4,955 nucleotides of DNA from IMG/VR virus record IMGVR_UViG_2667527789_000016, one strand, 5' to 3'. Positions 1-4,955 of this stretch are shown piece by piece. The translations under genes were made by a program, and so were the position numbers. Source of the stretch: a virus (lineage: Duplodnaviria > Heunggongvirae > Uroviricota > Caudoviricetes). Under the pieces are notes generated by a model. It saw nothing but the letters and a program-made list of their open reading frames with translations, was not told where the DNA came from and did no database searches. Each line of letters opens with the position of its first letter. The first letter of the stretch is position 1.

Positions 1-1425
1 GTGGAATTATTCAGATTCACTAAAGTAAAAATTGCAGAACTGCCAACGCCGGAGCATGGGCAGGCCGAATATGGTGATACGGAGGTTAACGGGCTGCGTG
101 TCCGTGTAGGTTCGTCAGGTGTGAAAAGTTTCTGCATTTCCCGTAAGCGTAACGGAAAATTTATTCGTGCAACGCTGGGGCGTTTTCCTGATCTGAGTGT
201 GGACAATGCCAGGGCTAAAGCTATGGAGCTTCTCGGAGAAGTAGCCACAACGGGGATAAATCCGAACACAGCGAAACGCATGAACAACAAGGCCATGATA
301 ACGCTGAGTGAGGCACTTGAAGCCTACATAAAAAATCGTGGCCACCGTCTTAAACCCGCCACAGAAAAACAGTACCGCAGCATATTACAGAATTATTCCG
401 GTGACTGGATGGCGCATACCCTCGCTAGTATTTCCCGCGAACGTGTGGAACAACGGCATAAGGCCATCACTGATGGGGCTGTATGGTTCGGTGCTGATAA
501 AACCACGTTACGGGCTGGTGTTGGTACAGGAAGCAAGGCACAGGCCGATTTATGGGCGCGTGCGCTGCGTGCTGTGTGTCGGTTTGCGCATGATCATTAC
601 CGTGATGATGCGGGTAATACTCTTTTACCGGATCCGCCGACTCTGGTACTGAGCACCAAACGCCAGTGGCACGGAACGGTAAGAAAAACGGAACGTATCC
701 GTCTGCATGATTTTCCCCGTTGGTTTGCTGCTGTAGCTGCTGTACGTGACCAGGGCGAACAGGAAAGGGATGATATAGCGGTTACGGTATGTGATGCCGT
801 GGAAATGGCGCTTTTTACCGGACTGAGAAAATCAGAAATTTTTGGCCTTACGTGGGATCGCGTGAATATGGGCGGTCGTTTTTTCTGGATAGACACCACG
901 AAAAACGGGGATCCGCTCGAATTGCCGATTACTGATACGTTGCGGGAAATGTTCCGCCGCAGGCTGAAAATAAAAAACGCTGATGATGTTCTGGTGTTTC
1001 CTGGTGTGAAGGGAGTGATTCAGGAGACACGGCACATCATAGACCGGATAAGCGCGGCTACCGTTCCAGAGTCGAACGATGAAATGCTCTCCCCTGTACC
1101 ATTCAAATGGCACGATGCGCGCCGGACGTTCGGGACGGTTGCCGAACTGGTGGGCGTGGGTAATTACATCCTCAAGCGCCTGATGAATCACCGCACTATG
1201 CGAAGTGCTGACGTAACGCAGGGGTATTTACATTTTGGTGCTGATGAACTGCTGGAGCCAGCGTCACGGATAGAACGGGCAATTCTGGAGCATGCCGGGC
1301 TGGTGGAGAGTAAAAAATCTATCGATGCGCAATTGCTTTCTGCACTGGAGAGCATGGACGATGATGAAAAACGCCAATTAATTTTCAAAATCATAAACAA
1401 AAATTTAGAGGTATCGTCTAAATGA
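1..1425 (+). CDS. int: Tyrosine site-specific integrase (phage/P4-type, N-terminal arm-binding domain plus catalytic domain); possibly 5'-partial, GTG at position 1
   Basis: 474-aa ORF. The N-terminus (FTKVKIAELP...GLRVRVGSSGVKSF...RATLGRFPDLSVDNARAKA) resembles the arm-type DNA-binding domain of phage integrases. The C-terminal half carries the catalytic signature: R in TGLRKSE, H-x-x-R in KWHDARRTF, and a candidate catalytic Tyr in TQGYLHF. The true start may lie upstream of the window. Confidence 0.9.
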   Translation: MELFRFTKVKIAELPTPEHGQAEYGDTEVNGLRVRVGSSGVKSFCISRKRNGKFIRATLGRFPDLSVDNARAKAMELLGEVATTGINPNTAKRMNNKAMITLSEALEAYIKNRGHRLKPATEKQYRSILQNYSGDWMAHTLASISRERVEQRHKAITDGAVWFGADKTTLRAGVGTGSKAQADLWARALRAVCRFAHDHYRDDAGNTLLPDPPTLVLSTKRQWHGTVRKTERIRLHDFPRWFAAVAAVRDQGEQERDDIAVTVCDAVEMALFTGLRKSEIFGLTWDRVNMGGRFFWIDTTKNGDPLELPITDTLREMFRRRLKIKNADDVLVFPGVKGVIQETRHIIDRISAATVPESNDEMLSPVPFKWHDARRTFGTVAELVGVGNYILKRLMNHRTMRSADVTQGYLHFGADELLEPASRIERAILEHAGLVESKKSIDAQLLSALESMDDDEKRQLIFKIINKNLEVSSK

Positions 1426-2042
1426 AAGTTTGGGATGTAGTAGATGATGATACAAGAATTGAATTATATGATTATCTTGATCAAGTCGAAAAAGAAATGA
1501 GCGAGCATATATATGAATTGAAAGATAAATTTAAATATTATAGAAAAGCCGAAAGGAAAAGAATAGCAGCAAAGATTGATAAGAAAGAATATTTAGCGTT
1601 AGACAAAACAGGGGAGATAAACATAGGTCATAGTGCTAATGTATTTCTGAAATCCATCTTAATACTAGAGCTACTTGGATATAAAAATACTGCTGAGGAT
1701 CTTTCATGGGTATACAAAAGAGCCTGTATAGCCTCAAAAGGTGGTGGCAAAGTTATTAGATTAATATCTGATGGTGTTATCAAAAGAAGAAGAAGTGAAG
1801 CCGCCTCCGGCCCCCGCCACCATTTACATGATGAGATAGTCGCCATCATGAAAGCCACATGGAAGAAAGAACCAGCACTATCCAAAACAAAAATGATTGC
1901 GAAGCTGTCGCGTCGATATGAGGGCCGGATAAGCGAGGAAACAATCAAGTGCTGGATAAAAAGTGAAAAACTAGCCCCGCCGCCACCACCTGACAAAAAG
2001 TACAAAAACACCGAACTGGTGATCCCGCCAGAGTACGCATAA
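1422..2042 (+). CDS. Hypothetical protein, AT-rich cargo gene (206 aa); C-terminal part resembles a short HTH-like segment followed by a PPPPP tract
   Basis: ATG at 1422 overlaps the integrase stop (ATGA, 1422-1425); GAGG at 1408-1411. The first ~380 nt are very AT-rich (about 30% GC by eye) against roughly 50% in flanking genes, then composition returns to GC-normal near 1800. No recognisable family from sequence alone. Confidence 0.6.
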   Translation: MKVWDVVDDDTRIELYDYLDQVEKEMSEHIYELKDKFKYYRKAERKRIAAKIDKKEYLALDKTGEINIGHSANVFLKSILILELLGYKNTAEDLSWVYKRACIASKGGGKVIRLISDGVIKRRRSEAASGPRHHLHDEIVAIMKATWKKEPALSKTKMIAKLSRRYEGRISEETIKCWIKSEKLAPPPPPDKKYKNTELVIPPEYA

Positions 2043-2055
2043 AAAATTTTTTATC

Positions 2056-2086
2056 AGCCAGGGTAAAAGCAGCTATTCCCCTGGCT
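2056..2086. other. Hairpin (8-bp stem AGCCAGGG / CCCTGGCT, 15-nt loop) just downstream of the cargo ORF stop; possible weak terminator
   Basis: Inverted repeat 2056-2063 / 2079-2086. Preceded by AAAAAATTTTTT (2041-2052), which would supply a U-run for minus-strand reading, but there is no strong T-run after it on the plus strand. A direct repeat TTCCCCTGG sits at 2076-2084 and 2095-2103. Confidence 0.25.
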
Positions 2087-2175
2087 TACCTGCTTTCCCC
2101 TGGGAAAATCAGCTTTTCACCTTACCGCCCTCACAGCAAAAACCTAAAGTAGCTCACGGTAACAATAGGTAATAC

Positions 2176-2388
2176 GTGGAGTTACTTGTGAACCTAATCA
2201 ATTCTCAAGAAAAAATGACCCGCAAAGAAGCCGCCGAGCATTTGGGGGTAAGTGTCCAGACTCTTGCTAACTGGGCGCATACTGGCAAGGTAAAAATCCC
2301 TTTCCATAAGCTGGGGCGCAAAGTGCTGTATATGCGCTCTGATCTCGATACTTATCTTGCATCCACTCGCAGAACGCAGACAGCGTAA
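2176..2388 (+). CDS. Small HTH DNA-binding protein of the excisionase/AlpA/Vis type (start may be the in-frame ATG at 2215)
   Basis: The sequence TRKEAAEHLGVSVQTLANWAHTGKVKIPFHKLGRKVLYMRSDLDTYL fits the excisionase-family HTH pattern (helix-turn-helix, then a Gly-Arg wing, then an acidic DxxL motif). It lies immediately downstream of the integrase, as in many integrative elements. GTG 2176 has a weak AGG at 2168-2170; ATG 2215 has no clear SD. Confidence 0.75.
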   Translation: MELLVNLINSQEKMTRKEAAEHLGVSVQTLANWAHTGKVKIPFHKLGRKVLYMRSDLDTYLASTRRTQTA

Positions 2389-2408
2389 GGGGGGAGCGAT
2401 GCACATAA

Positions 2409-2434
2409 CAAAAAGCGCCCCGTTACCGGAGCGC
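2409..2434 (-). other. GC-rich hairpin (GCGCCCCG-TTAC-CGGAGCGC, 7 of 8 bp) with a U-run on the minus strand; terminator-like in minus orientation, possibly also serving the upstream plus-strand gene
   Basis: Stem 2415-2422 / 2427-2434. The plus strand has CAAAAA (2409-2414) before the stem, so the minus-strand RNA has stem followed by UUUUUG. Contains the CGCCCCGTTAC motif repeated at 2891-2923. Confidence 0.35.
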
Positions 2435-2530
2435 CCTTGCGAACAATTAACCTGCTGCGAAAAAATTGGATCAGTGCAGGGGAATTATATCAACTGTGTG
2501 AAGAAGCGCCACAATTGCCGGATAACAGGC

Positions 2531-2558
2531 AAAGAAAAGGCCACCTGTCACGGTGGCC
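2531..2558 (-). terminator. Rho-independent terminator of the minus-strand small gene
   Basis: Stem GGCCACC (2539-2545) / GGTGGCC (2552-2558) with a 6-nt loop. On the minus strand the stem is followed by TTTTCTTT (complement of 2531-2538). It sits about 30 nt downstream of the stop of the 2769..2590 gene. Confidence 0.55.
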
Positions 2559-2589
2559 AATGTGATCAGTGTGGTGGTTTGCTGGTGGA

Positions 2590-2769
2590 TTATTCCGCTT
2601 CTTTGGTCTTGCGGCGCTGGCGGCGTTTTATTTCGCCGCGCATGGCAGTAACGATAAATTGCGCGTCTGTTTCGTTTTCTTCTTTTACCAAATTCATTTC
2701 ACTTAAAACGTCTAGAGGTACTCTAGCTGTTTTTTGTTGTGACTTGTTGTTTGTTGTACCTGTTGGCAT
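2590..2769 (-). CDS. Small basic protein (59 aa), putative DNA-binding regulator of the element (candidate repressor); function unproven
   Basis: ATG (complement of 2767-2769) is preceded by AAGGAG at 8-nt spacing (complement of 2778-2783). Protein is MPTGTTNNKSQQKTARVPLDVLSEMNLVKEENETDAQFIVTAMRGEIKRRQRRKTKEAE with a strongly basic tail. It has its own terminator (2531-2558) and is divergent from the plus-strand operon. The longer 117-aa ORF (to 2943) would run through the operator and hairpin region and is not favoured. Confidence 0.6.
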   Translation of the reverse strand: MPTGTTNNKSQQKTARVPLDVLSEMNLVKEENETDAQFIVTAMRGEIKRRQRRKTKEAE

Positions 2770-2795
2770 CTCTGTTCTCCTTACTGTTAGGTGGT

Positions 2796-2835
2796 GTTCA
2801 GTATACGGAGAAAAAAAAATAAAAAAAGACTTGAA
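2796..2835 (-). promoter_or_regulatory. Candidate promoter for the minus-strand small gene (-10 TATACT, T-rich upstream tract)
   Basis: Minus-strand TATACT (complement of 2800-2805) lies about 30 nt upstream of the ATG. A long T-tract on the minus strand (plus-strand A-run 2809-2827) could act as an UP element. No good -35 hexamer, so this is weak. Confidence 0.3.
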
Positions 2836-2880
2836 GTGCAAGTCACCTAAAAGTAATCTAGATTTCAAGGTGACTTGCAC
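2836..2880. promoter_or_regulatory. Operator-like perfect inverted repeat GTGCAAGTCACC-N21-GGTGACTTGCAC with a perfect palindrome AATCTAGATT in the spacer
   Basis: Arms 2836-2847 and 2869-2880 are exact reverse complements (12/12). The spacer holds a 10-bp perfect palindrome at 2855-2864. It lies in the divergent intergenic region between the small regulator gene and the plus-strand operon. Confidence 0.45.
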
Positions 2881-2883
2881 CAA

Positions 2884-2923
2884 AAAGGCAACGCCCCTTA
2901 CTGTTGGGCCAGTAACGGGGCGT
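2884..2923 (-). other. Long GC hairpin (13-bp stem with one bulge, 6-nt loop) followed by a U-run on the minus strand; terminator-like or leader RNA structure
   Basis: ACGCCCCTTACTG (2891-2903) pairs with CAGTAACGGGGCGT (2910-2923). The plus strand has CAAAAAGGCA before the stem, giving UGCCUUUUUG after the stem on the minus strand. Shares the CGCCCCGTTAC motif with 2415-2434. Confidence 0.35.
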
Positions 2924-2959
2924 CTAACCACAAACGATAGCAATAGTATCGAGGTAGCT

Positions 2960-3166
2960 ATGTTAAATCATATCACACACCCGCAAGGGCGGGACTCACA
3001 CAACCTGAATAAATACATCTGGCGTTTTATCGCCCTGAGCACGGCACAACCGCGCGTAATCCACATCGAGGCCACCAGCGAACAGGAAGCACGCCAGCAA
3101 TCCCCGGCTGGCTGCGTGATGGTATTCGCTGCCCGTATTCGCCAGGAGGTAGGCCATGTGCAATAA
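2960..3166 (+). CDS. Hypothetical small protein (68 aa), first gene of the plus-strand operon
   Basis: ATG 2960 with GAGG at 2951-2954. It is the in-frame tail of the 2357..3166 ORF after excluding the part that overlaps the regulatory region. Its stop overlaps the next gene start by 11 nt. Confidence 0.45.
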   Translation: MLNHITHPQGRDSHNLNKYIWRFIALSTAQPRVIHIEATSEQEARQQSPAGCVMVFAARIRQEVGHVQ

Positions 3167-3395
3167 AACCACACCGGACGCAGCAGCCGCCGCGCTCACT
3201 ACGCTGATGCACGCGCTTATTGATATTTCTGTTATTGCTGACATGGCGCATAAGCACGCCACCAGTGAAACAGAATATGCAGGGGCTTTCGTTCCTCATT
3301 CGCTGGCGGTTATGCAACTTAGTGCTGATATGGCTCTGAATGAGGCCAAAGCTATCCTGATTGCTGATTGTGAAAATGGGGGGGGTTATGCGTGA
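3156..3395 (+). CDS. Hypothetical small protein (79 aa)
   Basis: ATG 3156 preceded by AGGAGG (3144-3149) at 6-nt spacing. Overlaps the upstream and downstream ORFs in a coupled arrangement. Confidence 0.55.
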   Translation: MCNKTTPDAAAAALTTLMHALIDISVIADMAHKHATSETEYAGAFVPHSLAVMQLSADMALNEAKAILIADCENGGGYA

Positions 3396-3609
3396 TGATC
3401 GTTTTAATTCCCTGAAACAGGAATTTTCCGGCGTTCCTGATGATGCGGCTGATGCGCTTTCGTCAATATCTGAAATTATGCGGGTGGCTTTTTTCTTTCT
3501 TTGCACTGATGAGCACAGAGATACAGGGCTAAATATTCTTGATATTGCCGCTAACTATGCTGATTTCGTGACAGAGGTTATTTTAAGAAAAGCGACGGAC
3601 GGGGATTAA
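3388..3609 (+). CDS. Hypothetical small protein (73 aa from ATG 3388; alternative starts at 3376 or TTG 3361)
   Basis: ATG 3388 overlaps the stop of the upstream ORF (ATGCGTGA) and follows a G-run (3378-3385). The stop at 3607-3609 is one nt before the next start. Confidence 0.5.
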   Translation: MRDDRFNSLKQEFSGVPDDAADALSSISEIMRVAFFFLCTDEHRDTGLNILDIAANYADFVTEVILRKATDGD

Positions 3610-3610
3610 T

Positions 3611-3844
3611 ATGCGTGATATTTACCACGAAACAACAGATCGCGTATTTCTTGCACTTTCTCACAGTGAAAATATGATGGAAATATTGCGCATATGGCTT
3701 GAAACACTTGGCGACAATGAACGCGACAAACAAAAATCAAGAATTGTCACGGCATTAATAACGCTTCTTGAGCCTGTAATAATGGAAATACAAGAAATAG
3801 ACCAATTGCACGACAGATATAACGAACAGCACACCGGAGAATAA
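3611..3844 (+). CDS. Hypothetical small protein (77 aa)
   Basis: ATG 3611 preceded by GGGGA (3601-3605). Shares the initiation context GGGG-TTA-ATGCGTGAT with the preceding ORF. Confidence 0.55.
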   Translation: MRDIYHETTDRVFLALSHSENMMEILRIWLETLGDNERDKQKSRIVTALITLLEPVIMEIQEIDQLHDRYNEQHTGE

Positions 3845-3849
3845 AAATA

Positions 3850-4149
3850 ATGAAACTTAAATATTCTGGCTTAACTGCCAGTGGCAACACTCACCCTAAA
3901 TTTACGCGCGGTGATATTTACCGCGACCAGTACGGCGGCACGGTAATGATTAAGGGCGTGGCGGGACGGTGCGTAACTTACCGCCGTGAAGGTTACGAAT
4001 ATGATTGCGTGATGCCTGTTTATCAGTTCCGGCGTGATTTTTCTCTGGTACAGACCGCGCCGCATAACGTGCCCACCAGCAACGCCAGGGCACGGGCAAA
4101 CATCCAGAAGCTGAAAACCATGATTAACGGATTCAGGGGTAAACAATGA
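3850..4149 (+). CDS. Hypothetical protein (99 aa)
   Basis: ATG 3850 with GGAG at 3836-3839. Its stop overlaps the start of the downstream ATPase gene (ATGA at 4146-4149). Confidence 0.55.
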   Translation: MKLKYSGLTASGNTHPKFTRGDIYRDQYGGTVMIKGVAGRCVTYRREGYEYDCVMPVYQFRRDFSLVQTAPHNVPTSNARARANIQKLKTMINGFRGKQ

Positions 4150-4955
4150 AACTGGCACCGAACGTAAAACGATTACCGAAAGACAAATACACCGATGCGA
4201 TTATTTTTGCGGGTATTGATGCTCACTCATTCGCAGAGCATTACATCATTGCACAGGCCAAAAAAGCAGGCGATCCAGTCCCTCCCGTTTATCTGGGGCG
4301 TTATCAGTTAAGCGAACTGGATAACCTCCAGATTGTTGATGATGGGCGATACAGGGCGACGGTGATACGCGCCGGAAATATTGAAGAGCCGCAGCTGTTA
4401 ACCATCGCCACGAAACTGGCGATCGCCGGAGTCCAGGAGGCGCGGCTACTTTCTGAAAATTTCGAATTGCTGGAGGAATGGAGCGACCAGCTTCCACGGC
4501 TTAGGGAGGCATGGGAACGCGGGGAAAGCCTGGTCATGAAAAAAATCCCCCAGCGAAAAACCACGCTACCGATGAGCGTTGGATCTACCGGATACGACAC
4601 ACAGCTTGATTACGTGGTAAAGGGGATTATTCCGGCATCGTCGCTTTGCAGCATATACGGGGCGAGCGGTTCCTATAAATCATTCCTTGCCGGATCGTGG
4701 GCGTGTCACGTTTCCACGGGCCGCCAGTGGGGAGGCCGCAGGGTGGCGCATGGCGCTGTTCTCTATGTGGTTGGTGAAGGCGGTATCGGCGTTCCGCGTC
4801 GTGTAAAGGCCTGGGAGGTTGTGCACGGTGAGCAGGTGAAAAATCTGTATCTGGTAAACCGTCCCATCTTTCCGGCTGTCCCGCTTGATGTTGATGAACT
4901 GATTATTGCTGCCAGTCAGGTGGAGAGGGAAACAGGTAAACCTGTTCGCATGATT
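4146..4955 (+). CDS. RepA-like AAA_25 family P-loop ATPase (putative replicative helicase of the element), 3'-partial, preceded by an uncharacterised N-terminal domain of about 125 aa
   Basis: ATG 4146 with AGGGG at 4135-4139. The open frame runs to the window end (270 codons). Residues DYVVKGIIPASSLCSIYGASGSYKSFLAGSWACHVSTGRQWGGRRVAHGAVLYVVGEGG match the RepA/AAA_25 pattern (a 'DY/WLVKGLLP...' motif, then a Walker A-like GxxGxxKS, then '...VLYV..E'). Family assignment is from memory of that pattern, not a search. Confidence 0.8.
   Translation, partial: MKLAPNVKRLPKDKYTDAIIFAGIDAHSFAEHYIIAQAKKAGDPVPPVYLGRYQLSELDNLQIVDDGRYRATVIRAGNIEEPQLLTIATKLAIAGVQEARLLSENFELLEEWSDQLPRLREAWERGESLVMKKIPQRKTTLPMSVGSTGYDTQLDYVVKGIIPASSLCSIYGASGSYKSFLAGSWACHVSTGRQWGGRRVAHGAVLYVVGEGGIGVPRRVKAWEVVHGEQVKNLYLVNRPIFPAVPLDVDELIIAASQVERETGKPVRMI

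Follow-up and report, generated by a model that had tools for sequence, protein, structure and literature searches.

Introduction

Phage-inducible chromosomal island (PICI)-type satellites are widespread, and their replication gene, called pri or pri-rep in the literature, commonly goes under the label "primase" and serves as a core marker in searches for satellites. In the Gram-negative PICI EcCICFT073, a segment consisting of pri-rep and ori drives plasmid replication in Escherichia coli without a helper phage, and an iteron origin lies immediately downstream of pri-rep (PMC6092414). Here we examined a 4,955-nt stretch of DNA from a virus of the Caudoviricetes (IMG/VR record IMGVR_UViG_2667527789_000016; the whole stretch is referred to as the window), which ends within an open reading frame (ORF) encoding a RepA-like ATPase. 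With a probability of about 0.6, this ORF is the 5' part of the gene for a Gram-negative PICI replication initiator-helicase composed of a Toprim-like, non-catalytic N-terminus, a RepA/DnaB-like helicase and a C-terminal winged helix. The broader assignment, a PICI replication initiator-helicase followed by an iteron origin, is very likely correct.

Results

The window ends within a RepA-type helicase gene

The ORF begins with ATG at position 4146 on the plus strand and stays open up to the window end (270 codons, 810 nt), which falls just before Walker B. We obtained the full-length gene from E. coli O45:H2 FWSEC0003 (NZ_CP031916.1; locus L001), to a stretch of which window positions 3800-4955 are 99.6% identical. 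The copy at L001:9342-10751 is annotated "helicase RepA family protein" and encodes 469 amino acids (aa; for example WP_044868561.1), with one residue changed among the first 270, and the window ORF corresponds to codons 1-270 of 469. When positions 3800-4955, which include the DUF4222 gene, were used as the query, similar DNA was present in 1,243 of 5,426 complete E. coli genomes.

Pfam AAA_25 (PF13481) matched residues 151-256 of the window fragment (E 4.5e-21; 75.8 bits, cutoff 27) and residues 151-318 of the full-length protein (E 5e-44; 150.6 bits, same cutoff), which bears out the assignment to RepA/AAA_25-type ATPases in the initial annotation. End to end, the full-length protein matched phrog_2850, a PHROG of unknown function (E 3e-222); none of the models D5_N, DUF5906/superfamily 3 (SF3) and Pox_D5 matched it, even at E<=1. 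The only solved structure matched by sequence was RSF1010 RepA, a hexameric 5'-3' helicase (PDB 1g8y, 1nlf, 1olo). The similarity is low, and the match covers the ATPase core (E 0.01 with the single sequence, 6.7e-4 with a profile). Within it, the Walker A Lys-Ser, the motif 1a Glu (VGEG opposite PAED), the Walker B Asp (LDTL) and the His-His pair (HHSGK opposite HHASK) are aligned.

Satellite context and exchange of the replication gene

In the window and in four further loci, the replication gene lies downstream of, and co-oriented with, int and alpA in a small integrase-bounded island. These loci are L001, EcCICFT073 (L003), a metagenomic relative (L004) and the satellite of strain OkiPb01694 (L006, NZ_AP042564.1). 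The gene order of L001 is int, a helix-turn-helix (HTH) gene, Bro-N, YlcI, an Icd-like gene, small ORFs, DUF4222, the helicase gene, a small ORF, a gene for a single-stranded DNA-binding protein (SSB) and a capsid gene; the order in EcCICFT073 is the same. It agrees with the general Gram-negative PICI plan (PMC6092414, PMC10111431). Based on this gene order, the window contains the left half of a PICI-type satellite and the ORF is its replication gene. As had been remarked from the window alone, no separate primase is encoded upstream: the scanned window ORFs match no primase family in Pfam or PHROGs. The accompanying suggestion that the module continues past the window end was borne out by the relatives, in which the rest of the helicase, a predicted winged helix, an iteron origin and the SSB gene follow.

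DUF4222 is positioned directly upstream of the replication gene, overlapping its start, in all loci looked at (window 3850-4149; L001 9046-9345; L003 13946-14245; L004 5681-6004; L006 7803-8102), and this holds for RepA-type and SF3-type helicases alike. The DUF4222 stop overlaps the helicase start as ATGA, so that the two genes are probably translationally coupled. The DUF4222 product may assist the replication module as a conserved accessory factor.

The OkiPb01694 satellite (L006, 4001-8098) is at least 98% identical to window positions 1-4145, from the integrase through DUF4222, and has a 584-aa P4-alpha-type (SF3) replication gene instead of the RepA-type gene. In a windowed alignment, identity drops at the start codon, position 4146, to about 60% over the N-terminal domain and thereafter to background. 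This indicates that the whole replication gene, presumably with its origin, was swapped as a unit between near-identical satellites. A junction inside the N-terminal domain, to which a megablast reach to 4222 would have pointed, is ruled out by the same alignment. All four combinations of N-terminus and helicase were found: a zinc ribbon and Toprim primase N-terminus precedes an SF3 (P4-type) helicase in P4 alpha and a RepA-like helicase in the homologs P0118 and P0121, and the domain of about 125 aa precedes an SF3 (P4-type) helicase in EcCICFT073 Pri-Rep and a RepA-like helicase in the window gene.

A tyrosine in the Walker A motif is a clade trait

The P-loop GASGSYKS departs from the canonical Walker A pattern GxxxxGK[ST] of AAA_25/RepA-like helicases, as the initial annotation had pointed out. 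In the alignment with RSF1010 RepA (PDB 1g8y), the second Walker A glycine is paired with Tyr177 (GGAGKS versus GSYKS) and Lys-Ser is retained, so that the deviation is real. Among the matches listed, a G[AP]SGSYKS P-loop is present in 120 of 120 homologs, down to 56% identity. An exhaustive profile search yielded 36,954 relatives, and we tallied Walker A in the best 149 cluster representatives at 50% identity, 144 of which align at the Walker A lysine. The second-glycine position of these 144 is occupied by Tyr or Phe in 83 and by Gly in 47, and a few have Leu, Cys, Arg, Met, Ala or Thr. Among ranks 1-60, Tyr or Phe is found in 54 of the 58 representatives aligned there, and Gly is in the majority only in more distant ones. 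Carriers of the Tyr/Phe P-loop include P0118 and P0121, which have intact Zn_Ribbon_Prim and Toprim_3 domains.

The catalytic residues described for RepA-type helicases are the motif 1a Glu, the Walker B Asp, the motif 3 His and the arginine finger (PMC8965321). E211, D273, H312/H313 and R323 are invariant in the family alignment, E211 alone lying within the window; R323 is a candidate arginine finger. With the Tyr/Phe and Gly groups pooled, the Walker A Lys-Ser, motif 1a Glu, Walker B Asp, motif 3 His-His and Arg are conserved at 90% or more. A comparison of the two groups for co-varying positions gave two weak ones only, at HMM 165 (Pro versus Glu) and 387 (Leu versus Ala/Cys), with no clear structural meaning.

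The same deviation in 83 of 144 representatives marks a clade trait and gives no reason to exclude the protein from the RepA/DnaB-like helicases. We conclude from these comparisons that the Tyr/Phe P-loop is a trait of a clade of apparently functional helicases, and the protein is probably an active NTPase despite Tyr177. The suspicion that the replication module is unusual found no support, since its P-loop is the norm in a large clade. Much of what the initial annotation had named as the opposing outcome was in fact found: the variant P-loop is normal in its clade and the N-terminal region belongs to a domain conserved in EcCICFT073 Pri-Rep, yet that region matches no named domain. One E. 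coli homolog (P0045, 563 aa) is annotated with a lambda head-decoration domain (PF02924) in addition to AAA_25, which is probably a gene-fusion or annotation artefact.

A possibly Toprim-like N-terminal domain that appears to lack the catalytic residues

The first 125 or so residues, described earlier as a region without an assigned domain, are 47% identical to the first 126 aa of EcCICFT073 Pri-Rep (E 2e-25). The earlier description stands insofar as no Pfam or NCBIfam model matched residues 1 to about 150, even at E<=1. No Toprim, Prim-Pol or archaeo-eukaryotic primase (AEP) model matches residues of the N-terminal domain, and neither Zn_Ribbon_Prim nor Zn_ribbon_DnaG matches the protein. 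The domain searches envisaged in the initial annotation thus gave a mixed outcome: a primase or Prim-Pol domain in this region was not found, whereas a winged helix is predicted, at the C-terminus. All homologs found with the N-terminal profile are from Escherichia, Shigella, Klebsiella and Enterobacter. Clustering at 50% identity left a single representative with the whole architecture, which indicates a narrow distribution. Searches with the N-terminal domain, with a single sequence and then with a profile, returned nearly exclusively short partial proteins of Enterobacteriaceae, which are of little use for architecture counts.

The domain is predicted to be alpha/beta with a Toprim-like fold, in which invariant Ala-Gly pairs end strand 1 (A22-G23) and strand 3 (A76-G77). 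Based on the predicted topology, A22-G23 would occupy the site of the Toprim catalytic Glu-Gly, and A76-G77 that of the Toprim DxD. The Toprim Glu after strand 1 and the DxD after strand 3 appear to be absent, and the sole invariant acidic residues, D43 and E110, lie elsewhere. The columns of residues 1-125 that are invariant or at least 90% conserved contain neither Cys nor His, which leaves no conserved zinc-ligand set. When the domain was compared with other proteins, Aquifex DnaG ranked first (7.2), followed by Bacillus subtilis DnaG (6.6), T7 gp4 primase (6.6), Leishmania HGPRT, a generic Rossmann-like fold (6.4), and Twinkle (6.3). Three profile comparisons and a Foldseek search of viral models were unsupportive, and Toprim ancestry is left without sequence-level proof. 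The hhalign probability was 0.4% for the 22 aligned Toprim domains of fused relatives and 1.2% for P4 alpha, and in a profile search of the PDB no match had an E value below 0.27. When the N-terminal model was run with Foldseek against BFVD, a single uncharacterised 112-aa phage protein stood out (TM 0.59/0.68), the rest being noise. On balance, we lean towards a Toprim-derived or Toprim-like domain that would be unable to catalyse primer synthesis.

Where same-clade representatives are extended N-terminally by at least 90 residues, the added part is, among others, a Toprim, Prim-Pol (13 of 46 long forms) or DnaB N-terminal domain (24 of 52 mid-length forms), the last of which is the primase-docking domain of DnaB. 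The N-terminal slot thus typically holds a primase or a primase-binding module.

In P0314, P0319 and P0389, the N-terminal domain is fused straight to SSB (233 aa, PF00436) or to a PerC-family regulator (199 aa). These fusions are probably deletion derivatives in which the helicase was lost and the 5' end of the gene was joined to a downstream gene. A fusion to DUF927 in P0291 is hinted at by the protein's name only.

Relatives have a probable iteron origin and a putative winged helix

In L001, nine of the ten ARGTGGG sites of the whole 19-kb locus are located at 10753-10950, inside 200 bp beginning 2 nt past the stop codon, where about 0.05 per 200 bp are expected; one site is inverted. The nine iterons flank an AT-rich centre of 32-37% GC, an arrangement that has been described for Gram-negative PICIs (PMC6092414); the initial annotation had suggested looking for iterons or an AT-rich origin downstream. 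The metagenomic relative L004, whose protein is 58% identical, has A(A/G)GTGCGC repeats at the equivalent place, and its C-terminal residues, about 70, differ. In these two examples, repeat and C-terminal sequence change in parallel, which supports iteron binding by the C-terminal domain.

Our AlphaFold model of the full-length protein was built from 19 sequences and has a mean predicted local distance difference test (pLDDT) score of 67. The C-terminus (residues ~400-469) is modelled as helix-helix-helix-strand-strand, that is, three helices and a beta hairpin, with pLDDT 75-90. We read this as a winged helix, which, judging by the sequence comparison, may bind the iterons. The ATPase core is poorly modelled, and we set the model aside as a guide to the P-loop; Foldseek against the PDB gave weak Rad51/RadA/KaiC matches only.

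Features of the window and of related satellites

Table 1. Annotated features of the 4,955-nt window
Feature	Position	Strand	Basis or remark
Tyrosine integrase, P4-type (Arm-DNA-bind_3 + Phage_integrase)	1..1425	+	Pfam; same gene in L006; left end of element
206-aa ORF, no family assigned	1422-2042	+	No PHROG; sub-threshold HTH_32
AlpA-type HTH regulator/excisionase, PICI regulation module	2176..2388	+	Pfam HTH_17, E 4e-13; PHROG excisionase and regulator families
ORF, C-terminal 59 aa match phrog_949	2590-2943	-	YlcI/YnfO-family label by synteny; relatives also HicB-antitoxin-like
68-aa ORF matching phrog_6196 "transcriptional repressor"	2960-3166	+	Icd-like cell-division inhibitor label by synteny
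Three small unknown ORFs	3156-3844	+	PHROG scan
DUF4222 gene	3850..4149	+	Pfam DUF4222, E 2.1e-23
Helicase gene, 5' part	4146..4955	+	ORF, translation, full-length copy L001:9342-10751
N-terminal domain, residues 1-125	4146..4520	+	Conserved in enterobacterial PICI replication proteins
IIFAG, end of predicted strand 1, A22-G23 invariant	4200..4214	+	
RAG, end of predicted strand 3, A76-G77 invariant	4368..4376	+	
Variable linker, residues ~126-150, Glu/Arg-rich, length varies	4521..4595	+	Alignment gaps; pLDDT 44-67
RecA-fold RepA-like ATPase/helicase core, first part (AAA_25 from residue 151)	4596..4955	+	
Walker A variant GASGSYKS, residues 172-179	4659..4682	+	Tyr177 for second glycine; Lys178-Ser179 retained
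VGEGG with motif 1a catalytic Glu211, family-invariant	4770..4784	+	Motif names per PMC8965321

The 206-aa ORF overlaps the integrase stop; L006 has the same gene, with a hypothetical-protein annotation. It lies in the stretch of lowest GC content in the window (36-39%, compared with about 50%) and is thus possibly recent cargo. A 269-aa ORF with a TTG start within 2357-3166 (+) is probably spurious. Rfam gave no match on the window at gathering thresholds.

The L001 satellite (5063-15077) is inserted in the large-terminase gene of a lambdoid prophage, with the N-terminal part of terL at 4059-5063 and the C-terminal part at 15077-16207. This insertion fits the described "helper-embedded PICI" configuration (PMC10111431). 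The satellite has its own ClpP-like protease/major-capsid fusion gene, the annotation of which is similar to that of the host prophage's. In L004, at the locus of the homolog P0119, genes for a tail-assembly chaperone, tape-measure, capsid, S78 protease and portal proteins are located 3' of the replication module (7864-13404). L004 is thus closer in appearance to a capsid-forming PICI or a small phage than to a minimal satellite.

Discussion

Alternative explanations

Several points weigh against an active initiator-helicase with a Toprim-like N-terminus. In other P-loop proteins, nucleotide binding is lost when this glycine is replaced, as in Ras G15A, and the AlphaFold model is unreliable near the P-loop (pLDDT 26-45), so that the fit of ATP beside the tyrosine is not readable from it. 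The equivalence of the two Ala-Gly sites with the Toprim Glu and DxD residues rests on topology, not on superposition. The origin and the C-terminal domain are seen in relatives, the window stopping at codon 270. If the tyrosine blocked the nucleotide, the protein could be an ATPase-dead origin binder or adaptor that marks the origin and recruits host DnaB. To our knowledge, the second glycine, at whose position Tyr177 sits, is near-universal among P-loop NTPases, and the lack of a confident model of the P-loop region also leaves room for this explanation. The family-wide conservation of Lys-Ser, the motif 1a Glu, the Walker B Asp, His-His and the candidate arginine finger, at 90% or more in the pooled groups, argues in the opposite direction. 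Moreover, the variant is spread over many 50%-identity clusters, including fusions with intact primases, and decay is hard to reconcile with such a spread. Overall, we consider loss of ATPase activity unlikely. A still smaller chance, and a very slight one, is that the gene does not act in replication at all and encodes a RecA/RadA-like repair ATPase or anti-phage defence cargo. Pfam loosely places AAA_25 in presumed DNA repair proteins, one clade relative has a TOTE conflict-system primase domain, and NCBIfam RadA models match the protein, albeit weakly (E 2.6e-4; 20 bits against a cutoff of 259). A PADLOC search, however, matched zero defence-family models, and the gene sits at the invariable replication-gene position, alternates there with a P4-alpha-type helicase gene between satellites that are otherwise at least 98% identical, and is followed directly by an iteron/AT-rich origin and then SSB.

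The N-terminal domain could be an active primase of an unrecognised minimal type, making the protein a true primase-helicase, as the names "DNA primase" and pri imply. The strand ends at which Toprim proteins bind metal are without invariant acidic residues here; in addition, the domain is merely about 125 aa long, is devoid of a conserved Cys/His set and matches no Toprim, Prim-Pol or AEP model. Possibly, the name "DNA primase" was taken over from the helicase part of P4-family models, and such labels on these proteins carry no information about the N-terminal domain. We therefore think primase activity improbable, about as much so as an ATPase-dead protein or slightly more. Less improbable, and a minority possibility that deserves mention, is a domain unrelated to Toprim, namely a small alpha/beta interaction or regulatory domain of enterobacterial satellites that binds, for example, a host or helper-phage factor or the DUF4222 protein.

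Proposed mode of action and significance

For an initiator-helicase with a Toprim-like, non-catalytic N-terminus, the following course of events can be proposed. The winged helix would bind the iterons (AAAGTGGG repeats) directly after the stop codon, and the protein would assemble there as a presumed hexameric ring, melt the AT-rich centre and unwind DNA with ATP. Primers would come from host DnaG, not from the protein itself; that the protein specifically recruits DnaG is a tentative proposal, which we would not favour at present. The non-catalytic N-terminal domain might serve in primase recruitment, single-stranded DNA binding or ring architecture, by analogy with human Twinkle, for whose inactive primase-like domain such a non-catalytic role has been proposed. 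The satellite SSB just downstream and DUF4222 would act as accessory factors.

In the literature searched, we found no analysis of the domain architecture of PICI Pri or of the Tyr/Phe P-loop variant, and no description of a RepA-like motor replacing an SF3 motor behind the same N-terminal domain or of a missing primase active site in that domain. The enterobacterial versions have in common a small N-terminal domain that has no recognisable primase active site and is joined to at least two unrelated helicase motors, the gene as a whole forming the cassette. This leads to a testable prediction, dependence on host DnaG, and to cleaner annotation. More speculatively, and with rather low odds for the combination, replicative hexameric helicases with Tyr/Phe in place of this Gly may form a large clade in which nucleotide is bound or sensed in a structurally distinct way, linked with an N-terminal domain that is either a DnaG-adaptor ex-primase or a cryptic minimal primase. 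If so, enterobacterial PICI "primases" would not be primases in the usual sense, and the satellites would depend on host priming, unlike P4. The Tyr/Phe P-loop is a natural experiment at a glycine that ranks among the most conserved in biology. The overall picture of satellite replication is unchanged by these results, and their wider impact is modest.

Comparison with known systems

The closest described protein, Pri-Rep of EcCICFT073 from E. coli CFT073 (WP_000761835.1, 584 aa), is encoded at the same gene position and has the N-terminal domain in common with the window protein. Past this domain, Pri-Rep consists of D5_N, DUF5906 and Pox_D5 (SF3, P4-alpha type), whereas the window protein has the AAA_25 RecA fold; similarity between the two is not detectable beyond residue ~126, and the remainder of Pri-Rep is 41% identical to P4 alpha residues 324-756. 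The P4 satellite resembles the window element in its P4-type integrase and AlpA-like genes. P4 alpha follows the same one-polypeptide logic of an N-terminal module, a helicase and a C-terminal origin binder, and in the P4 record short repeats (ori type 1 and 2) are marked both in ori and in crr, the latter a region needed in cis for replication. The first 320 residues of P4 alpha are a zinc ribbon and a Toprim_3 primase, and its helicase is of SF3; the window protein is without both. Fusions of the P0118/P0121 type share the motor instead. The helicase and C-terminal domain of P0118 (680 aa) are 72% identical to those of the protein encoded by the window gene, with the P-loop GPSGSYKS, and P0121 (699 aa) consists of Zn_Ribbon_Prim, Toprim_3 and AAA_25. 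Their intact primase N-terminus of about 340 aa, with EGYATA and DND motifs, contrasts with the 125-aa domain of the window protein, which lacks these motifs.

RSF1010 RepA differs in having a canonical GGAGKS P-loop and no extra N- or C-terminal domains. In RSF1010, a separate RepC opens the origin and a separate RepB' primes (in part from Scherzinger, cited in PMC8965321). Twinkle and T7 gp4 have canonical P-loops, no detectable sequence homology to the window protein and no winged-helix origin-binding domain, and the resemblance to them is an analogy of design, not evidence of membership. In conclusion, we regard the locus as an ordinary Gram-negative PICI replication module in a RepA-type variant, with two modest undescribed details. 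The module as such is already known and the protein family is widely annotated; the new points reported here refine it modestly and in a testable way, and do not amount to a new kind of system.

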